A stretch of 39,970 nt of DNA from Hyphomicrobiales bacterium (GTDB lineage Bacteria > Pseudomonadota > Alphaproteobacteria > Rhizobiales > Aestuariivirgaceae): assembly GCA_013002595.1 (NCBI GenBank), contig JABDJG010000473.1, forward strand, positions 1-39,970, read 5' to 3'. Both the position numbers and the translations under genes were made by a program. Under the pieces are notes generated by a model. It was not told the DNA's origin. It saw nothing but the letters and a program-made list of their open reading frames with translations, and made no database searches. Shown one piece after another: positions 7,510-39,970 of the stretch (position 1 is its first letter; each line of letters begins with the position of its first letter).

Positions 7510-8436
7510 ATGAGTAGTATCAATACCAATCTCGCGGCCATGACCGCGCTTCAATCACTTCAGAAAACCAGCATGAATCTGCTTGAGACCCAGACACGGA
7601 TCTCGACAGGCTTCAAGGTTGGCACGGCAGCTGACAATGCGGCCTATTTCTCGATCGCAGCAACGATGCGTTCTGACAACTCGGCCATGTCGACGGTTCA
7701 GGACGCTTTGGGCCTGGGTGCAGCAACCGTAGATGTTGCCTACACGGCACTTGAATCCACGATCGACGTTGTCGATGAAATCAAGAACAAGCTTGTTGCT
7801 TCTCGTGAGCCGGGCATCGATCGTACGAAAGTTCAGGCGGAAATCTCCGAGCTGCAGAACCAGCTCACCAGCATCGCCGAATCTGCCTCGTTCAACGGCG
7901 AGAACTTCCTCAACGTGGATTCCGGCGCGGCCGACTACAACGCGACCAAGACGATCGTGTCGTCGTTCACCCGTAGCGGCTCCAGTGTATCCATCGGCAC
8001 CATCAGCATCGACATCACGACGACGACGTTGTTTGATGCCGAGGCGACTGCCACTGGTATCCTGGACGCCGAATCGACAACCACGAACGGTTCTGTGACG
8101 TACACGGTCGCCAATCTGGATATTTCGGCCTTGACGGACGCCGCAGATGACCTGGCCGATCTGGAGGAAATCATCTCGACGGTTGATGGAGCTTTGGCTT
8201 CAGTGATCACGGCTGCGTCTGATCTTGGTGCGTCCAGTAGACGTATTGAACTGCAGCAGACCTTTGTGTCCAATCTGATGGATGCGATCGAACGCGGTAT
8301 CAGTCAGCTGGTCGATGCAGACATGAACGAAGAATCGACGCGGTTGCAGGCCTTGCAGGTGCAACAGCAGCTCGGCATTCAGGCGCTCAGTATCGCCAAC
8401 AGCTCGAGCCAGAGTATCCTGTCGCTGTTCAGGTAA
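7510..8436 (+). CDS. fla: flagellin (short rhizobial type), copy 1
   Basis: 308 aa. N-terminus MSSINTNLAAMTALQSLQ...RISTGFKV...DNAAYFSIA and C-terminus DADMNEESTRLQALQVQQQLGIQALSIANSSSQSILSLFR are flagellin D0/D1 blocks. Confidence 0.95.
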   Translation: MSSINTNLAAMTALQSLQKTSMNLLETQTRISTGFKVGTAADNAAYFSIAATMRSDNSAMSTVQDALGLGAATVDVAYTALESTIDVVDEIKNKLVASREPGIDRTKVQAEISELQNQLTSIAESASFNGENFLNVDSGAADYNATKTIVSSFTRSGSSVSIGTISIDITTTTLFDAEATATGILDAESTTTNGSVTYTVANLDISALTDAADDLADLEEIISTVDGALASVITAASDLGASSRRIELQQTFVSNLMDAIERGISQLVDADMNEESTRLQALQVQQQLGIQALSIANSSSQSILSLFR

Positions 8437-8702: not shown

Positions 8703-9629
8703 ATGGCGAGTATCAATACGAACTTTGCGGCGATGACCGCGCTTCAGTCGTTGAAGATGACTGATATGAAGCTGCTTGAGACCCAAAACCGGATTTCGAC
8801 GGGTTTCAGGGTCGAAACGGCGAAGGACAACGCGGCGTACTTTTCGATTGCTGCAACGATGCGATCCGACAATGCGGCGCTTTCGACAGTTCAGGACGCA
8901 CTGGGCCTTGGCGCTGCGGCGGTCGATGTCGCCTATACGGCGCTGGAAAGCGCCATAGATGTTGTCGACGAGATCAAGAACAAGCTGGTCGCGGCGCGTG
9001 AGCCGGGTATTGACCGAACGAAAATTCAAGCGGAAATCACCCAGCTGCAAGAACAGCTGATTGCAAACGCGGATACAGCGTCGTTCAACGGTGAAAACTT
9101 CCTGTCGGTTGATTCAGGGTCAGCCGATTACAATGTAATGAAATCAATTGTGTCCTCGTTCACACGAAGCGGCACCACGGTTTCAATCGGCACCATCAAC
9201 ATCGATATCACATCGACTGCGCTATTTGACGCCGAAGCTACTGGAACCGGAATTCTCGATGCCGAGTTTACGACGACCAATGGTGGCGTCGTCTATTCGG
9301 TTACGACCCTCGATATTTCATTGCTGACAGATTCGGCACTCGACCTGGCTGACCTTGAAGAAATGGTCCAGACCGTCGACAACGCGCTGGGCCTGGTTAT
9401 CACGGCGGCCTCCGATCTGGGTGCGGCCAGCAAGCGAATCGAACTCCAGCAGACCTTTGTGTCCAATCTGATGGATGCCGTAGACCGGGGTGTCAGCCAA
9501 CTTGTCGATGCGGACATGAACGAAGAATCGACGCGGCTGTCGGCCTTGCAGGTGCAACAACAGCTCGGCGTGCAATCCTTGAGCATCGCGAACGCGTCCA
9601 GTCAGAATATCCTGTCACTGTTCAGGTAA
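8703..9629 (+). CDS. fla: flagellin (short rhizobial type), copy 2
   Basis: 308 aa, collinear with copy 1 with no indels. The N- and C-terminal thirds are near-identical and most substitutions are central. Confidence 0.95.
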   Translation: MASINTNFAAMTALQSLKMTDMKLLETQNRISTGFRVETAKDNAAYFSIAATMRSDNAALSTVQDALGLGAAAVDVAYTALESAIDVVDEIKNKLVAAREPGIDRTKIQAEITQLQEQLIANADTASFNGENFLSVDSGSADYNVMKSIVSSFTRSGTTVSIGTINIDITSTALFDAEATGTGILDAEFTTTNGGVVYSVTTLDISLLTDSALDLADLEEMVQTVDNALGLVITAASDLGAASKRIELQQTFVSNLMDAVDRGVSQLVDADMNEESTRLSALQVQQQLGVQSLSIANASSQNILSLFR

Positions 9630-23070: not shown

Positions 23071-23140
23071 AACTTAAAGAGCATGTTCGCGCAAGGTTGG
23101 CGCACTACCGTGGCTTCAGTCAGTGATATTGGAGGGCGGT

Positions 23141-25231
23141 ATGTCGGATTCGACCATTTCCGCAACAGCACCATCATCAAATCGGGATACGCGTGACGTC
23201 GGCTTTGCGGTTGGTGTCATCATTATCCTCACGGTTCTGTTTTTGCCGATTCCGGCGGTGCTGATCGATATCGGCCTGGCCTTGTCGATTGCTCTATCGG
23301 TGCTGGTGCTGATGGTGGCGTTGTGGATCCAGAAACCGCTCGAATTCTCTGCATTCCCAACGGTACTGTTGATCGCGACGATGCTCCGGCTCTCACTCAA
23401 TGTCGCTTCAACGCGGTTGATCCTGGCCAACGGCGCGGAAGGCTATGGCGCGGCCGGGCGGGTGATTGGCGGGTTCTCCAGTTTTGTCATGAACGGTGAC
23501 TTTGTTATCGGCCTGATTGTCTTTGCCATTTTGATCACGGTGAACTTTCTGGTGATCACAAAAGGTGCCACCCGGATTGCAGAAGTCGGTGCCCGTTTCA
23601 CGCTCGATGCGATTCCGGGCAAGCAAATGGCGATAGATGCGGATCTTTCGGCTGGTCTGATCGATGACAAGGAGGCGCAGCAGCGCCGCCGGGAGTTGGA
23701 AGAGGAAAGTTCATTCTTTGGTTCCATGGACGGTGCGTCGAAGTTTGTCCGCGGCGATGCGATTGCGGGTCTCATCATTACCGCAATCAACATTTTCGGT
23801 GGCATCGTCATCGGCATCACACGGCACGGCATGGAGCTTGGAGAAGCAGCAGACGTTTATACGCAGCTTTCAGTTGGTGACGGGCTTGTGTCTCAGATCC
23901 CGGCGTTGATCGTATCGTTGGCCGCCGGTTTGCTTGTCTCGAAAGGCGGCACGCGAGGCTCGGCGGAAAAGGCGGTGCTCGGGCAATTGGGCAAGTATCC
24001 GCGCGCCTTGATGGTGGCTGCACTCTTAATGTTCATCCTGGCGCTGGTCCCCAAGCTGCCGCTGCTGCCGTTTGCGATGCTTGGCGTCTTGATGTCGGTC
24101 ATGGGACTGACAATTGTCGGCCAGCGCGAGACCGAGCGGCGGACAATTGAACTGCGGTCTGAAGAGGCTGAGCAACAGGCGGCAGATGAAGCACGCAACT
24201 CGGTAAAGGAATCTCTGCAGGCCAGCGAAATCGAGCTGTGCCTGGGCAAGCAACTTTCCACCAAGTTCATGTCCTCGCACAGCGAGCTGGCACACCGGGT
24301 GGCCAAGATGCGCCGCAAGTTCGCCCGGCAATACGGCTTTGTCATTCCCGATATCAAACTCAGTGACGATCTTTCGGTGGAGCCGAAGAACTATGAGATC
24401 AAGATACACGGCACCGCTGTTGCCGTGGAGAATTTGCGCCTAGGCGATGTGATGGTCATTATTGGCGATGGTCCGGGTCCGGACGTGCCCGGCGATGAAA
24501 CCCGCGAGCCGGCATTTGGCATGAAGAGCATGTGGACGTCGGAACACTTTGCCGATGAGATCAAAAAACAAGGCTTCACGACCGTCGATACCATGTCGGT
24601 AATGTTGACGCATCTGAGCGAGGTTGTACGCAACAACCTGTCGCAATTGCTGTCCTACAAGGACATGCGGGCGTTGATTGACCGCCTGGACCCTGAGTAC
24701 CATCGCCTTGTAGAAGAGTTGTGCCCAGCGCATCTGTCCTATTCCGGGCTGCAGGCCGTCTTCAAGTTGTTGCTGGCCGAACGGGTGTCGATCCGCAACA
24801 TGCACCTGATCCTTGAAGCGGTTGCCGAAATTGCGCCACATGTGCGCCGGCCCGAGCAGATTGTCGAGCACGTGCGGATGCGCGTCGGCCAGCAGATCTG
24901 CGGCGATCTCATGAGTGACAACAAACTGACGGTTCTGCGTTTGGGCAATCGCTGGGATCTGGTCTTCCATCAGAGCCTGAAACGCGATGCCAATGGCGAA
25001 GTTGTTGAGTTTGATATCGATCCCAAACTAGTCGAAGAGTTTGCCACCGAGGCTTCTGATGTGATCAAGGAGCACATGAACACAGGACGTAGTTTCGTGC
25101 TGGTAACCGCACCGGATGCCCGGCCTTACGTGCGCCTGGTCGTTGAGCGGATCTTTGCGACTTTGCCGGTTCTGTCACATGTCGAGATTGCGCGCGGTGT
25201 CACGGTTGAATCGCTTGGGACGATTTCGTGA
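23141..25231 (+). CDS. flhA: flagellar export gate protein FlhA
   Basis: Track ORF trimmed to ATG 23141 (GGAGGG upstream); 696 aa. FHIPEP-family TM region ([24 protein letters not shown]...[51 protein letters not shown]) plus a cytoplasmic domain. Confidence 0.95.
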
Positions 25232-34234: not shown

Positions 34235-35329
34235 ATGTCTGATCAACCTGACGACGACAGTAAAACCGAAGAAGCAACCTCCAAGAAGATCCAGGACGCG
34301 GTCGACAAGGGCAATTTGCCGTTCGCCAAGGAGGCGCCGGTATTCACTTCCATGGTGGGCATGTTGATGGTCATGATATTTGTCATCGTGGACGGTGCCC
34401 GGCGGTTGTCCTCGGTGTTTGCAAGACTGATCGAGAACCCCGGCTTATGGTCGTTTTCGGCCGGCGAAGACACCGTCATCCTGCTGTATTCACTCATCGG
34501 CGAGGTCGGCAGGCTGCTGATGCCTGTTATCGGTATTCTGCTGATTGCCGGGCTGGCCGGCTCGCTGTTTCAGAATACGCCGAGCATTGTCGTTGAGCGG
34601 ATACGACCGAAATGGTCGAAGCTGTCGATCCGTGAAGGCTGGAAGCGCATTTTCGGATCGCAAGGGCGCATTGAGTTTCTCAAATCGGTGTTCAAGTTCT
34701 CCCTGGTTGCAATAGTGGCTGCTGTCCTGCTGCGCACCGCCAAGGGGGACGTGATCACGGCGATGTTTGTAGATCCATTCCAGGTTCCGGCAATGATTCT
34801 CACATTGTCGATGAAGCTGCTCGGCGCTATTTGCGCGGCCACGCTGTTGCTAGCGGCGGCCGATGTTGTGTGGTCACGGCGTCTGTGGCGCGAAAAACTG
34901 AAGATGACCAAGCAGGAAGTCAAGGACGAGCACAAGCAGACGGATGGCGATCCGATCGTCAAGGCGCGTCTGCGCTCGATAGCCTGGGATCGCCAGCGCA
35001 GGCGGATGATGTCATCTGTTCCGCAGGCGACCCTGGTGATTGCGAACCCAACCCATTATGCCATAGCGCTGAGATATGTACCTGAAGAGGCCGGCGCGCC
35101 TCTGGTCCTGGCCAAAGGCAAGGACCTGATCGCCCTGAAAATTCGTGAGGTGGCCGCCGAGCACAACGTACCGGTGATCGAAGACAAGCCTCTGGCAAGG
35201 TCGATGTTCGATGTTGTCGAGGTCGACCAGATGATTCCCGCTGAGTTTTATCAGGCCGTTGCAGAAATAATTTTCTATCTCAATGAACAGGCTGCGAGGC
35301 GATTGCCGGCAGTGACAAGATATGGGTGA
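34235..35329 (+). CDS. flhB: flagellar export switch protein FlhB
   Basis: 364 aa. N-terminus DDSKTEEATSKKIQDAVDKGNLPFAKE, the block KMTKQEVKDEHKQTDGDPIVKARLRS, and the NPTH autocleavage site (VIANPTHYAIAL). Confidence 0.95.
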   Translation: MSDQPDDDSKTEEATSKKIQDAVDKGNLPFAKEAPVFTSMVGMLMVMIFVIVDGARRLSSVFARLIENPGLWSFSAGEDTVILLYSLIGEVGRLLMPVIGILLIAGLAGSLFQNTPSIVVERIRPKWSKLSIREGWKRIFGSQGRIEFLKSVFKFSLVAIVAAVLLRTAKGDVITAMFVDPFQVPAMILTLSMKLLGAICAATLLLAAADVVWSRRLWREKLKMTKQEVKDEHKQTDGDPIVKARLRSIAWDRQRRRMMSSVPQATLVIANPTHYAIALRYVPEEAGAPLVLAKGKDLIALKIREVAAEHNVPVIEDKPLARSMFDVVEVDQMIPAEFYQAVAEIIFYLNEQAARRLPAVTRYG

Positions 35330-35810
35330 GCTAATGCAAAGAGAAGCCGGTAGACACATGCAAGATTGCGAACAACTGCTCGCCCGGGCCCTGGTGGGCT
35401 TTGCGGCCGAATTGAGAATTATCGACGTTGTCCATTTGATCGCGGACATCCACCTGGAACGTCATGGCCATCTGGAAGACATGATCAACTCGGCAGCGGA
35501 ATTGTTCTTCAAATCCGGCACCCTCAAATTCTCCAAGGCCGGCCACGTGGAAATCAATTGGGGGAGTGCAGCGGCTGTCACGGTCTGCATGCAATTTTGT
35601 CATGAGCAGGTCGTTGCGCATTTTGATCTGCTGATTGAATCCGACGGGGCAGGGGTGCAGCTAAAACTGCTGGATACAAATACAGCAGGTGGCGAAAATG
35701 TGTGCCGCACCACACAACTCGCCGAGGCCCTGGCCGATGCCCAGCTGTTCCTGCCGTTCGAGGTCATATCCCGCTATCAACGAAATGTGCTGCAAGGCGA
35801 ACTTCTTTAA
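35322..35810 (+). CDS. hypothetical protein downstream of flhB
   Basis: 162-aa ORF overlapping the flhB end by 8 nt; ATG 35334 alternative. No family recognised. Coding status inferred only from length and operon position. Confidence 0.4.
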   Translation: MGELMQREAGRHMQDCEQLLARALVGFAAELRIIDVVHLIADIHLERHGHLEDMINSAAELFFKSGTLKFSKAGHVEINWGSAAAVTVCMQFCHEQVVAHFDLLIESDGAGVQLKLLDTNTAGGENVCRTTQLAEALADAQLFLPFEVISRYQRNVLQGELL

Positions 35811-35841: not shown

Positions 35842-36837
35842 TCAATTGAAGAAACCTGCCAGTTTTACCTGCTGACCGCCCAATCCCTGCTTGAATTTCC
35901 TCACACCGGCCGCGCCTTCGTCGTTCACGCCGCCGAGGTCAAAGTCAGTGATGCCTCTTGCCTTGAGTTGCACGATAGCCTGCCAGAGCAGCTGATGGTG
36001 TGCACCCAGTTTGCGCCCGCCGGCACTGGTCCAGCCGATCTGATAGGTCGCCGATGTGCCGTGTAGCAGTATCAAGATGCCCGCAACGACTTGCCCGTCC
36101 TGTGTTGCATTCCAGATCACCGCCTCTTGCCGTGGCACCATGGATTGCAGCAGTGCAGTGAGCAGTTTAATGGGCGGGCCACTATAGGACTTTTCGAGAC
36201 GGTCGGTTTCGTAGGCCTTCATGAACGGAGCCGAACTTGCGCCGGTCCAGTCGTCGGTCACAATCAGGCTGCTGCGCTCGGATTTCGACAGGACATTGCG
36301 CCATTTGCCATTCAGACCGGCACGGAGCGTTTCCACGGTGCCGGTCAGATCAAGCCAGATTGTTTGATAGCCTTCAAAGTTCGACTTGCGGACGTATCCA
36401 GATGTCGTGATTGTTGCCCTATTGTCCTTGTTGTCTACAACCTCGGGCAGCAGGCGGATTTTGCGTCCGATGCGCCTTGGAAATTCTTGAGCAAGTGCCC
36501 GGAAGAACGCGGCCAGATGGTCTGGAGTGCCAAAGCCGGCAAACCACAATGGCCCCCGGTCGAGACTGATTGCATGCACCAGGTTCTTGATGACACCGAC
36601 CTCGGCCAGCTGAACCAGCCCGGCCTCGCATCCATCGATCTTGACGATACCGTGCCGGGCGCCGATCTGATTGGCCGCCCGGTTGGCCAGTGCGTACGGG
36701 TAGTGCTGCAACAGTGTGGAACGCCGAATGGATCTAAAATAGTCTTCCCATGTTGCAAGCGGTACGGGTGCCCAATCGATTTCACAGATTGCCATGTGCG
36801 TTGCCAGCAGACGCGAAAACCCGGTCAAATGATTCAA
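35842..36837 (-). CDS. FemAB-like / GNAT-fold acyl- or aminoacyl-transferase
   Basis: 331 aa, TTG start (ATG 36795 alternative). The C-terminal half VVAGILILLHGTSATYQIGWTSAGGRKLGAHHQLLWQAIVQLKARGITDFDLGGVNDEGAAGVRKFKQGLGG has the FemAB-like GNAT (BioF2-like acetyltransferase) pattern. Last gene of the YcaO operon. Confidence 0.7.
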   Translation of the reverse strand: MNHLTGFSRLLATHMAICEIDWAPVPLATWEDYFRSIRRSTLLQHYPYALANRAANQIGARHGIVKIDGCEAGLVQLAEVGVIKNLVHAISLDRGPLWFAGFGTPDHLAAFFRALAQEFPRRIGRKIRLLPEVVDNKDNRATITTSGYVRKSNFEGYQTIWLDLTGTVETLRAGLNGKWRNVLSKSERSSLIVTDDWTGASSAPFMKAYETDRLEKSYSGPPIKLLTALLQSMVPRQEAVIWNATQDGQVVAGILILLHGTSATYQIGWTSAGGRKLGAHHQLLWQAIVQLKARGITDFDLGGVNDEGAAGVRKFKQGLGGQQVKLAGFFN

Positions 36838-36879
36838 TTTAACAATGAACCGCTCTGGTGCCGAAGCTGTCTGTTCGGT

Positions 36880-37326
36880 TTATTTTCTGGTCTGCTGCGC
36901 CAGGATACTATTTGCCTCCACCCGGGCCATATCGACGAGATATGCCAGGAACTTCAGATCAGCCGCAAGACAGATGTCTTTGAGCTCTTCCGCCATATTG
37001 TGCACGTACAGCACAACATCCGATTTGCTTGCTTTGGACTCCAACCATACTTTTGAAATTTCTTGTTTGCCGGCAGATTCCATTTGTTCGGTTGTCGCGC
37101 CACTTGTGGTCGGCGCATCGTGCTGATCCTGTCCGGATGGTTCTCGCAACTCGGTTGTCAGCAACTCATAGAGTTCCGTGATGTTGGGGTCATCCAGCGA
37201 GGCAATGTCTTGTTGTAACGAGGTTGCCTTGTCGAGAACGTGTGTCCTAACGCATTTGCCCAGATGCGGGTTCGCAATGTGGCCCGCATCCTCAGTTTGC
37301 AAGAAAGTTGGTTGTCTCTTATTCAT
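36880..37326 (-). CDS. hypothetical 148-aa protein (orphan) inside the YcaO-TfuA operon
   Basis: Track ORF 36880-37494 trimmed to ATG 37326 (M57, GGGACGG upstream), because the long form would overlap tfuA by 97 nt. Acidic/Thr-rich N-terminal half and a helical C-terminal half (VVLYVHNMAEELKDICLAADLKFLAYLVDMARVEANSIL). No family recognised. Confidence 0.45.
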   Translation of the reverse strand: MNKRQPTFLQTEDAGHIANPHLGKCVRTHVLDKATSLQQDIASLDDPNITELYELLTTELREPSGQDQHDAPTTSGATTEQMESAGKQEISKVWLESKASKSDVVLYVHNMAEELKDICLAADLKFLAYLVDMARVEANSILAQQTRK

Positions 37327-37397
37327 TACTGCCGTCCCGTCATTTTTGTGTTGTCGATTGCCGGTAGCCGGTTCAATCAGGTTAAAAAGGTTTGCCC

Positions 37398-38144
37398 CTA
37401 GTGCGATTGGTTCGGAGCGGCGTTTTCGATTTCTGAGATCATGGCACGCCACTGGGATGATTGACTGAAACTCCAATCGTCTGGAGGAACACACTTCGTT
37501 TCAGGTAACTTGATCCACTCTACTAACTGCATTGCGTCTTGCTGCTTTATGTTGACCTTATGTTGATTGGCCCACGCAATCAGGCGTTGGACCCTTCGCA
37601 GCTCGATGATGGGCAAACTGCCCAGGACTGATGAGAAATTTAACTCCGCGTAGTGTGTCCGGCGTGCCGCAGTCGTGGCCGACTGCCATTCCAGCGTCGA
37701 GATCATCTTGTCTGCACGCATGGCATTGAGAGTGGCCAGGATGTTCACGCGAGGCTCAGACAGAGGCTGATAGCCAAATTCGTGTGTTGCATGCACCAGG
37801 GCCACATCGGAATCGTCGACCAGTTCTCCAGCCTGATACATCTGGAATACCTGCCCGATGCCGATCATCCCGAACGGGGCACATTCCGCGGCGCGAAGAG
37901 CGCCCATGCTGGCGGCGCCGGCGACCGACACGCCTTCGGACAACGCAAATAGAATTTCCTTGTGCCAAACCGACCGGGTCTGTTCAAAGCAGCCATCGAT
38001 AATTCCGATGGTGGATGCACCATTCAGCACCGCCTTGGCAACATCGCCCCAAACAACGGGCCCGGCGATAATCAGTTCAGGATCCTCTTGTTGAACTTGA
38101 TCGATCATTCCGGCCAGACTGGGGCCTGCGAACAAAATCCTCAC
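37398..38144 (-). CDS. tfuA: TfuA-like protein (YcaO partner)
   Basis: 248 aa; the GTG start overlaps the ycaO TGA stop (GTGA). Family pattern MRILFAGPSL...GPVVWGDV...IGIIDGCFEQTRSVWHKEILFALSEGVSVAGAASMGALRAAECAPFGMIGIGQVFQMY...DDSDVALVH. Confidence 0.85.
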   Translation of the reverse strand: MRILFAGPSLAGMIDQVQQEDPELIIAGPVVWGDVAKAVLNGASTIGIIDGCFEQTRSVWHKEILFALSEGVSVAGAASMGALRAAECAPFGMIGIGQVFQMYQAGELVDDSDVALVHATHEFGYQPLSEPRVNILATLNAMRADKMISTLEWQSATTAARRTHYAELNFSSVLGSLPIIELRRVQRLIAWANQHKVNIKQQDAMQLVEWIKLPETKCVPPDDWSFSQSSQWRAMISEIENAAPNQSH

Positions 38145-39385
38145 GCTGCGACCCCTTGCATGTGGCGAAGGCCGCGCTGGGTTATCTGAACGCGGTTGCC
38201 CTGAAGAGGAACCTGAAGTTCATCGGCGATCACACGAACGACGTGAATGCCAAATTCCTGCGCATCCAATTCGACGACCAGTATCTGTTCGATGCCAACC
38301 GAATTCAGCCGATCCGTTAAGTCCTCGACCTTTTGTTTCATGCTAGCCGGTTCGGCCGGGCTCCGGGAACTGGCTTGCGCTCGGCCAGGACGTGCATAGG
38401 AATTCGGCCGACTGTCCGGTAGGTCGTGGAGTTTTTCAGCCTCATAGTGCTCGGCGCGAATATCGTCTCGTGCACCAGCGACCAGGGCCAATCGGGCTTG
38501 GGCGGCCTCCGTGATGGCCTTGACCATGGCGCGCCCTGCATCGGGATGACACCCGCATCCGCCACACTTGCTGCCGGTCTGGCCCGCAGCTTCATGGCGG
38601 TAATGTTTGGGTTCCAGCAAGGCCAGAAATGCGGGTAATTCAGTGTCTGAGTGCATATGAAACATACGCAGACTCAAGCCAGCAGCCTCGATCAGTTGTA
38701 ACAGCGCGGGCAGGTGTACGTCTTCTTGCCCCGTTGGCTGAAATTCAGAGTTACGCAGATTCTGCTTGGGCAGAAACTGCATATTGGCCAACGCATCTCT
38801 TTCAATGAGCTCGCATAAGGCATGAAACACTGCTTCATCATGGGTGTTGCCGGATGCAAGGCCGTCAGATGCAACATAAAATGCATCGTGATAGCCGGTC
38901 GGGGACTCGCGGTGATCGAGGCCGACCAGGGACCAGGGCACAAATGTAAGGTCATCTGTTCCAAGGTTCCTGGCTTGCTTCCAGGCCGTGGTTTCAAACG
39001 CTGCAAATCGATGAGGGTGGCAACGGGCAATTGACGCCAGATCGATGATGGGTTGCCCTGAACGGTTCAAGGAATCAAACGATGTCCAAACGACTGTGTC
39101 TGGCAGGCGCTCGGCGATCGCCGTCTCTGCGGCTTCCATCGCAGCCGAGATCATCGCTGAATCAATATCCGGTCCCTTGCCCAGACTAACAGAAAGGCTG
39201 TGTGAGTTTGGACGCACAGCCAACGCCACCGGAATGCCTAGGTGATCCAGGCCGGTTAGTTCTCCAAGCCGCGATATGCCAAGGCTGTGGAAATGCGGCC
39301 GCAAGCGAGCCAATGTCTGGCGAGCGCCACATGATCTGTCATTGTGCAGGCTACTTGGACTTCGAACGGCATACTGTTGTGACAT
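38141..39385 (-). CDS. ycaO: YcaO-domain protein (ATP-dependent peptide backbone-modifying enzyme)
   Basis: Track ORF 38141-39433 (TTG start) trimmed to ATG 39385 (GGAG 10 nt upstream); 414 aa. YcaO blocks LGISRLGELTGLDHLGIPVALAVRPNSHSLSVSLGKGPDIDSAMISAAMEAAETAIAE, ASDGLASGNTHDEAVFHALCELIERDA and GGCGCHPDAGRAMVKAITEAAQARLALVAGARDDI. Confidence 0.9.
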   Translation of the reverse strand: MSQQYAVRSPSSLHNDRSCGARQTLARLRPHFHSLGISRLGELTGLDHLGIPVALAVRPNSHSLSVSLGKGPDIDSAMISAAMEAAETAIAERLPDTVVWTSFDSLNRSGQPIIDLASIARCHPHRFAAFETTAWKQARNLGTDDLTFVPWSLVGLDHRESPTGYHDAFYVASDGLASGNTHDEAVFHALCELIERDALANMQFLPKQNLRNSEFQPTGQEDVHLPALLQLIEAAGLSLRMFHMHSDTELPAFLALLEPKHYRHEAAGQTGSKCGGCGCHPDAGRAMVKAITEAAQARLALVAGARDDIRAEHYEAEKLHDLPDSRPNSYARPGRAQASSRSPAEPASMKQKVEDLTDRLNSVGIEQILVVELDAQEFGIHVVRVIADELQVPLQGNRVQITQRGLRHMQGVAA

Positions 39386-39462
39386 ACATTCAACGCTCCG
39401 GGTTCTCGAAAGGCGAACAAATCCGATGGCCAATTTCCGGCGTGACCATCGGATCTAGAAGT

Positions 39463-39777
39463 TTAGGACGGCAGGTTGGCGTCGCGGCAACCAAGCTCAG
39501 TTGGCTCGGAGCGCATGGTGAACATGACACCGTCGAGCTTGTCGCTCTGGTGTTCGGTGGGCTCGGAGCGCATGGTGAACATGACGCCGTCGAGCTTGTC
39601 GCTTTTGTGCTCGGTGGGCTCGGAACGCATGGTGAACATGACGCCGTCGAGTTTGTCGGTTGCGGTTGCACTCAGTCCATTGCCGGCAACGGCTTTGGTT
39701 GAGACCGGAAAGGCTTCACCGTTCGGTGAACCGAAGACCATTGTTCCCGCGGACTTGTCATACGAAAAACTGCTCAT
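39463..39777 (-). CDS. 104-aa tandem-repeat small protein; candidate multi-core RiPP precursor
   Basis: ATG 39777 is preceded by GGAGAGAG (5-nt spacer). The ORF ends 77 nt upstream of ycaO on the same strand. It carries three tandem copies of DKLDGVMFTMRSEPTE separated by HKS/HQS. All variation between the core copies falls on every third base. The precursor role is inferred from context. Confidence 0.6.
   Translation of the reverse strand: MSSFSYDKSAGTMVFGSPNGEAFPVSTKAVAGNGLSATATDKLDGVMFTMRSEPTEHKSDKLDGVMFTMRSEPTEHQSDKLDGVMFTMRSEPTELGCRDANLPS
39496..39657 (-). repeat. 57-nt tandem repeat, 2.8 copies, in-frame within the small ORF
   Basis: Units at 39601-39657 and 39544-39600, plus a 48-nt third unit at 39496-39543. 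Six variable sites occur across the 48-nt cores, all in the same codon register. Confidence 0.9.
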
Positions 39778-39970
39778 AATTCTCTCTCCATGTTTTTGAT
39801 TCAGAGATCAAATCATTAACGGGCAGGCGTGACTCCTGTGTGAGAGTCGACGATCAGCGTGTCACAACGCCGATCGACCGCAGTCACTATTTGAGACCTG
39901 CACGCCATAGTCCTTCGAGCAAGTGCTTGGTATCTTTGATGTTTTTGTCCGGGATCACCGTGAACAAACG

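Follow-up and report, generated by a model that had tools for sequence, protein, structure and literature searches.

A multi-core precursor family beside a YcaO–TfuA pair in an alphaproteobacterium: a probable minimal cassette for thioamidated peptides

We analyzed a 39,970-nt stretch of DNA from a Hyphomicrobiales bacterium (contig JABDJG010000473.1 of assembly GCA_013002595.1; the window herein), at one end of which five co-directional open reading frames (ORFs) lie on the minus strand: a small repeat-bearing ORF, ycaO, tfuA, an orphan ORF and a FemAB-like gene. A first-pass annotation had read these five as an operon for a thioamidated peptide that is synthesized ribosomally and modified post-translationally (RiPP), and our ORF check of the window found them at the positions it had given. 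Judging by the sequence comparisons reported here, the locus is likely a minimal four-gene RiPP cassette, consisting of a Streptomyces antibiotic regulatory protein (SARP)-like regulator, a multi-core precursor, YcaO and TfuA, that leads to thioamidated peptides. The genes of this cassette and the core copies of its precursor are as follows.

39463..39777, minus strand: precursor gene, 104 amino acids; a leader of ~40 amino acids, then three modules of 19 amino acids
39616..39639, minus strand: core copy 1, MFTMRSEP, residues 47-54
39559..39582, minus strand: core copy 2, MFTMRSEP, residues 66-73
39502..39525, minus strand: core copy 3, MFTMRSEP, residues 85-92
38141..39385, minus strand: ycaO, 414 amino acids; predicted ATP-dependent enzyme that activates backbone amides (Pfam YcaO, 1.3e-56)
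37398..38144, minus strand: tfuA, 248 amino acids; predicted sulfur-delivery partner (Pfam TfuA, 2e-41)
39887..39970, minus strand: 3′ end of the regulator gene, the last 27 codons and stop of a gene for ~660 amino acids that is cut by the contig end

The precursor gene starts with an ATG at 39777 behind GGAGAGAG, a ribosome-binding site that is kept in relatives. The gaps from precursor to ycaO (77 nt) and from tfuA to the orphan (71 nt) had been given correctly, as had the overlap of the tfuA GTG start with the ycaO TGA stop as GTGA. Upon analysis with Tandem Repeats Finder, we found a 57-nt tandem repeat at 39495-39658 (2.9 copies, 91% matches) that corresponds to the three 19-residue modules, each of which contains MFTMRSEP. 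Relatives of this precursor are rare, with 12 proteins among the 5.8 billion searched and a few further loci from a metagenome scan, and the family is known from metagenomes and metagenome-assembled genomes (MAGs) only. A scan for the core pattern and a scan for YcaO 8-mers in 185,579 species-representative genomes confirmed no relatives; being pattern-based, these scans would not pick up distant YcaOs or core variants like MFTVRSEP.

In all relatives of the precursor, two or three copies of a near-invariant octapeptide stand behind an N-terminal region. In most of them the N-terminal region follows the pattern (F/L)xYxxSxxxxV(F/Y)xxxxGxxFP(V/L), and the spacers, tails and core copy number vary from one precursor to the next. 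Across 22 cores from nine loci, the core consensus is MF[TA][MV]RS[EV]P, with Met1, Phe2, Arg5, Ser6 and Pro8 invariant. Pairwise comparison of the codons of these cores gave 698 synonymous and 135 non-synonymous differences. The reading frame is therefore fixed and selection acts on the peptide; the core octapeptide is under purifying selection. One relative's precursor terminates exactly at ...MFTMRSEP, so the C-terminal end of the core lies at the Pro or ahead of it. We also noted a match of the spacer and core start (EHxSDKLDGVMF) to peptide deformylase motif 3 (window 39540-39625, minus strand, residues ~56-78; Pfam E 0.038, NCBIfam E 0.006-0.01). This match is sub-threshold and probably due to chance.

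Comparison of related loci (given L numbers herein) showed that the small ORF adjoins an orthologous YcaO–TfuA pair in every readable locus, always directly upstream of the pair and downstream of the regulator. The order regulator–precursor–YcaO–TfuA is complete in L001, L002, L007, L008/L009 and L019 and partly visible in L003, L005 and L006. It is conserved in three clades, whose YcaOs are 54-91% identical to that of the window and whose regulators are 46-59% identical between loci. Clade A comprises the window, L001, L014-L017 and L019 (YcaO 65-91% identical to the window); here the cassette is followed by the 148-residue orphan and the FemAB-like gene and abuts flagellar genes. In clade B (L002 and L007; YcaO ~54-55% identical), the precursor has two cores and a MerR-family gene lies behind the cassette. 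In clade C (L008 and L009; YcaO 57% identical), the precursor has two cores and a leader that is short and unrelated, and the cassette has no obvious accessory gene after it. With a conserved precursor family beside orthologous YcaO–TfuA pairs, the idea of a precursor-first, multi-core YcaO–TfuA RiPP cluster is well supported. As had been stated, the window holds no protease, transporter or dehydrogenase gene, and this was the same in all related loci examined: no transporter or protease was found in their flanks, and no protease, transporter or oxidoreductase gene is conserved in clades A, B and C.

Several individual loci carry further features. In one MAG, GCA_905169105.1, the cassette is present as two paralogues with separate precursors: L001, with three cores, orphan and FemAB-like gene, and L007, with two cores and a MerR-family gene, which adjoins GcrA-like and S24-peptidase repressor genes. 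CueR-type copper sensors carry a C-terminal Cys pair. By eye we saw no such pair in the clade B MerR, which we had considered as a possible copper sensor, and this protein lends no support to a metal link. Approximately 0.8 kb downstream of the clade C cassettes (L008 13018-13443, L009 7655-7915) lies an ORF with 47% identity to the C-terminal ~90 residues of TfuA, which may be the remnant of a duplication. Lastly, an integrase-core (rve) fragment is found ~600 nt upstream of the cassette regulator in L019 (751-1284); the cassette may thus be mobile or have been inserted beside the FemAB-like gene and the flagellar region.

Profile hidden Markov model searches placed both enzymes above the Pfam cut-offs, in agreement with the assignments of the first-pass annotation. 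YcaO scored 192.8 bits against PF02624 (cut-off 25.7) and 150.5 bits against TIGR00702 (cut-off 75.65), and TfuA scored 141 bits against PF07812 (cut-off 30). Among NCBIfam models, the best for YcaO was TIGR03266, the YcaO for thioamidation of the McrA glycine (166.7 bits, below the equivalog cut-off of 365), and the best for TfuA was NF033432 (174.5 bits, below the equivalog cut-off of 235.2). The best solved structure for YcaO was MJ1094, followed by the Methanopyrus kandleri YcaO, and the best PDB match for TfuA was 6xp8 (1.6e-28). In a library of 1.84 billion representatives, 910 YcaOs matched with E < 1e-30; three of these were 49-56% identical to the window protein and the others at most 45%, hence the window YcaO clade is small. 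The YcaO superfamily makes azolines, amidines and thioamides (PMC13063428), and TfuA-coupled YcaOs install backbone thioamides, with TfuA delivering sulfide from a ThiS-type thiocarboxylate (PMC6511847, PMC8120280, PMC13063428).

The cluster had been suspected to continue upstream, and this proved correct: 39887-39970 encodes the C-terminus of a conserved BTAD/TPR regulator that the first-pass annotation had missed. By tblastn, its product is 56-96% identical to regulator C-termini in L001, L005, L006, L019, L002, L007 and L008. The matching genes encode 650-690 amino acids and lie immediately upstream of the precursor. The window, which appears to be the entire contig, contains 27 codons, and we read the domains on full-length orthologues. 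In these, BTAD was above the Pfam cut-off, the C-terminal TPR was below or near its cut-off, and the OmpR-type winged helix-turn-helix (Trans_reg_C) scored 22.3 bits against a cut-off of 26.2. The gene at the window edge would thus encode a SARP-like regulator with winged helix-turn-helix, BTAD and TPR parts. Two non-coding elements flank the precursor gene.

39829..39866, minus strand: conserved operator-like motif, (T)GTGA-N17-TCAC-N7-TCAC, between the regulator and precursor genes
39422..39453, minus strand: stem-loop and T-rich tract directly 3′ of the precursor stop, from minimum free energy folding

The operator-like motif has one match in the window versus 0.01 expected, and each related locus carries a single copy at the same position, though the proteins of the clades are only ~50% identical. 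Its three tetramers, with spacings of 22 and 11 nt, would therefore lie on one face of the helix, and a TAAT-type −10 candidate lies ~8-10 nt downstream. In the usual layout of SARP operators, direct repeats at intervals of 11 nt lie immediately upstream of the −10 box.

The hairpin behind the precursor gene comprises 12-14 bp and is present in the five closest loci (the window, L001, L003, L005 and L006). Of the 12 consensus pairs in these five, six are kept through changes on both sides. A simple terminator scan missed the hairpin, whose loop exceeds 8 nt, while folding detected it. In L002, L008 and L019, which are more distant, we did not see it. We consider it a candidate leaky terminator or attenuator that would raise the ratio of precursor to enzyme transcript; a leaky terminator between precursor and enzyme genes is a layout known from other RiPP operons.

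The nearest characterized analogue of the cassette is the thiovarsolin (var) system of Streptomyces varsoviensis, in which the repeat precursor varA together with varY and varT was sufficient for thioamidated peptides (Santos-Aberturas et al. 2019; PMC6511847). That cluster has no protease; host peptidases release the peptide, which is N-acylated after release (PMC6511847). Both systems have a repeated short core next to YcaO–TfuA, variable copy number and no cluster protease, and the precursor, YcaO and TfuA that suffice in var are the conserved biosynthetic set here. However, the window cassette is an analogue and not a member of the thiovarsolin family. The thiovarsolin precursor carries an APR/GPR tripeptide core rather than the MFTMRSEP octapeptide, with no detectable sequence relation, and its host is an actinobacterium rather than an alphaproteobacterium. 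Moreover, the var cluster includes the heme-oxygenase-like VarO, an ATP-grasp enzyme, an amidinotransferase and a major facilitator superfamily protein, whereas the window and related loci lack these and the only constant companion is the BTAD/TPR regulator.

A closer relative by homology is found on Rhizobium plasmids. A YcaO match was found in 296 plasmid records, 157 of them from Rhizobium, and the closest clade is 41-43% identical. There the order is BTAD regulator, peptide of 44-47 amino acids, YcaO, TfuA and a protein of ~88 amino acids, as in R. phaseoli pRphaR630b and R. leguminosarum pRL11. Homology between this cassette and that of the window runs gene by gene with no change of order, with YcaO 41-43% and TfuA 38-42% identical, and the regulators of our related loci are 32-35% identical to those of Rhizobium over their full length. 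The differences lie in the peptide and the control elements. In the Rhizobium peptide the core is single and C-terminal (...HAL[RK]FR), there are no repeats and the leader is unrelated; the only sequence feature that its core shares with MFTMRSEP cores is [A/T]-[L/M]-[R/K]. Upstream of it, at the position that the operator-like motif takes in the window, are TAACG-like direct repeats with 11-12-nt spacing, a motif that differs from that of the window, and the small helical protein after tfuA is not detectably homologous to the window orphan.

The novelty claimed for the locus was therefore overstated, since Rhizobium plasmids carry this regulator–peptide–YcaO–TfuA cassette in abundance, which the first-pass annotation had missed, and TfuA-related proteobacterial clusters have already been catalogued (PMC8120280). 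Malit et al. (2021) placed 70% of TfuA-related clusters in Proteobacteria (over a thousand, with >500 in Rhizobium), none with a product, and stated that every characterized thioamidated YcaO–TfuA RiPP came from Actinobacteria (PMC8120280); the literature we searched held no later characterization. The word 'repeat' is not used in their text (PMC8120280), and the literature we searched held no paper on an MFTMRSEP precursor or characterizing the product of the Rhizobium cassette. The MFTMRSEP precursors are thus a new multi-core family within a known, catalogued cluster type. Two other kinds of system share the expected chemistry. In methanogens, the McrA thioglycine system (MJ1094, 6xp8), which provided the best models and structures for both enzymes, acts on a large enzyme subunit, whereas the substrate here would be a dedicated repeat peptide. 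The thioamitides (thioviridamide, thiostreptamide S4) and thioamidated thiopeptides likewise arise by YcaO–TfuA thioamidation of a ribosomal precursor; however, their clusters have a single core and many tailoring genes (AviCys formation, methylation, protease), none of which is in the window.

From these comparisons we propose the following pathway. The regulator would activate a promoter that carries the GTGA/TCAC repeats just upstream of the precursor gene. Precursor mRNA would end partly at the hairpin, and read-through would express the translationally coupled ycaO–tfuA. With ATP, YcaO would activate one or more backbone amides within each MFTMRSEP core, and TfuA would supply sulfide, drawn, by analogy, from a ThiS-type thiocarboxylate whose gene lies elsewhere, turning the activated amide into a thioamide. 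The cassette has no conserved protease or exporter, so housekeeping peptidases would probably trim the precursor. The product, released in up to three copies, would be a short thioamidated peptide resistant to proteases, and it would arise as thiovarsolins do. As a weak suggestion, the thioamidated residue could be the one before the invariant Arg (the Met–Arg bond), because the MFTMRSEP and Rhizobium cores share the [AT]-[LM]-[RK] motif and thiovarsolin has a Pro(C=S)–Arg bond.

Several observations weigh against this proposal. Since both enzymes fall below the equivalog cut-offs of the McrA system, they are relatives and not orthologues of its enzymes, and thioamidation is assigned to them through family membership and the coupling to TfuA. 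In the related loci we saw no conserved gene for a sulfur carrier, protease, exporter or immunity factor beside the cassette, which bears on release, export and self-protection. The leader of the clade C precursors (L008/L009) spans only ~20 amino acids and has no similarity to other leaders, which bears on substrate recognition. As for expression, the GTGA/TCAC motif is a candidate operator that the adjacent BTAD regulator may bind, and the hairpin is limited to close relatives, that is, to five sequences.

The two remaining ORFs of the first-pass operon lie between tfuA and the flagellar genes.

36880..37326, minus strand: orphan ORF, 148 amino acids, specific to one cassette clade
35842..36795, minus strand: FemAB/Acetyltransf_6-fold gene, 317 amino acids from ATG 36795, a co-directional neighbor

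We found only eight homologues of the orphan, a family as rare as the precursor, and on every contig long enough to show it (L001, L014-L019) it adjoins tfuA. This rarity and adjacency indicate that it travels with cassette clade A and not with the widespread FemAB-like gene. The protein had no match in Pfam, NCBIfam, PHROGs or PDB sequences, and hhalign found nothing between it and either the Rhizobium ~88-residue protein or the clade B MerR. Its C-terminal segment YVHNxxxELKxICxxxDLKFLAYLVDMARVEA is conserved, and AlphaFold2 predicted, at low confidence, an all-helical fold with a disordered center (8-sequence alignment, mean predicted local distance difference test score 55). We regard it as a clade-specific accessory that may be a regulator, an immunity factor or a chaperone.

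For the FemAB-like gene, the TTG start at 36837 given before (331 amino acids, 42-nt gap) is better replaced by the probable ATG at 36795, because homologues are mostly 317 amino acids long and alignments begin at residue 12-15 of the longer form. The gap to the orphan is then ~84 nt, not 42. Nearly all listed homologues span 299-351 amino acids. The protein scored 47.3 bits against Acetyltransf_6 (cut-off 22; 3.1e-12) and 31.5 bits against FemAB (cut-off 24; 1.1e-07) in Pfam, and its PDB profile matches were an aminoacyl-tRNA-dependent peptide synthase (9wqy/9wqw, 5.7e-06) and a FemX-type protein (6snr, 0.007). By fold family, it is a putative transferase of the aminoacyl-tRNA-dependent type. 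The family has >314 homologues, named GNAT-family at source, in Rhizobiales, Hyphomicrobium, Rhodospirillales and other Alphaproteobacteria, and an alignment of 32 sequences had 42 invariant columns.

Orthologues without a nearby YcaO/TfuA were found in L010 (66% identity), L011 and L020-L022 (64%) and L012 (57%), with SBP56, PhyH, cytochrome-c-like, FabA-like and PriA genes as neighbors. For instance, in the cassette-free loci L011 (4389-4748) and L020 (6527-6886) a CxxCH cytochrome-c-like protein of 119 amino acids with a signal-peptide-like N-terminus precedes the FemAB-like gene and a FabA/ApeP-like gene follows it. These neighbors may hint at a function of the FemAB-like gene of its own, unrelated to the cassette. 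The rest of the window (1-35810) is a Rhizobiales-type flagellar gene region. Pfam confirmed tandem flagellins (7510-8436 and 8703-9629), FlhA (23123-25231) and FlhB (34235-35329), and FliI, MotA, FliM, FliN and FliG were assigned from syntenic loci. Orthologues of a 162-residue ORF at 35322-35810 are precomputed as Atu0565-family, and a direct Pfam scan of the ORF found nothing.

The distribution of the FemAB-like gene bears on the five-gene pathway of the first-pass annotation. In such a pathway, after thioamidation, the FemAB-like enzyme would add an amino acid, from aminoacyl-tRNA, to the released peptide or acylate an amine on it, with the orphan as partner, giving a hybrid product. Its genes are co-directional with and close to the cassette in the window, L001, L014-L017 and L019, the FemAB fold family includes aminoacyl-tRNA-dependent peptide synthases, and the N-acylation of thiovarsolin after release makes an acyl- or aminoacyl-transferase step chemically sensible. 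However, the FemAB-like family is large and highly conserved, with orthologues at 57-67% identity that stand alone in unrelated neighborhoods, and the cassettes of clades B (L002, L007) and C (L008), two of the three clades, and of Rhizobium are without the gene. Further, the cassette-linked copy in L019 is 66% identical to the window protein, no closer than cassette-free orthologues, and the spacer between orphan and FemAB-like gene varies from 31 to 166 nt. Since every linked locus shares the same Atu0565–FlhB–FliG flank, the linkage may be inherited synteny, and co-occurrence with the cassette did not go beyond what common descent may explain. We consider the five-gene pathway unlikely; the FemAB-like gene is probably an independent conserved bystander and not a pathway member.

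The remaining alternatives concern what the enzymes do. Were TfuA an accessory, YcaO could instead carry out cyclodehydration of Ser/Thr to oxazoline, or form an amidine. The invariance of Ser6 in all 22 cores, the range of products of the YcaO superfamily and a match to TIGR03604 (SagD-type; 3.6e-29, below cut-off) would fit such chemistry, whereas no E1-like/Ocin-ThiF partner or dehydrogenase is present, the best enzyme matches are thioamidation enzymes, and tfuA is translationally coupled to a YcaO, a pairing that forms thioamides in every characterized case (PMC8120280). We therefore regard azoline or amidine formation as very unlikely. Still less probable, to the point of being hard to sustain, is that the pair modifies a housekeeping protein and the repeat ORF is unrelated or regulatory. 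While McrA and Escherichia coli uL16 are established cases of proteins thioamidated by a YcaO (PMC13063428), YcaOs of the uL16 type lack TfuA and a nearby small ORF (PMC13063428). In contrast, a small ORF with repeated, invariant cores accompanies the pair here in every readable locus, each of the two paralogous cassettes of one MAG included. The pattern scans of the species-representative genomes found no close precursor or YcaO relatives, which likewise indicates that the pair is accessory and not housekeeping.

Returning to the four-gene thioamidation cassette, it opens no new category, as its enzymology, cluster type and multi-core logic have all been described before. A bolder combined reading, in which the locus makes the first characterized proteobacterial thioamidated RiPP, a short peptide released in several copies per precursor, with a Cu(I)-binding or other non-antibiotic function and elaborated by the orphan and the FemAB-like transferase in the flagellar-flank clade, is in our view decidedly unlikely. 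In its metal-binding form, the M-x-x-M pair and the thioamide sulfur would make up a soft-metal (Cu(I)) site. If true, the reading would add a hybrid scaffold of a new, ribosomal/tRNA-dependent kind and give access to the hundreds of Rhizobium cassettes that are homologous. The value of the locus lies in being a compact, testable representative of its type, with four genes, three copies of an invariant 8-residue core, a likely dedicated activator with a recognizable operator, and tailoring genes that are not obligatory to it. Knowledge of its product would tell us what its rhizobial homologues make and which amide is selected by YcaOs coupled to TfuA.

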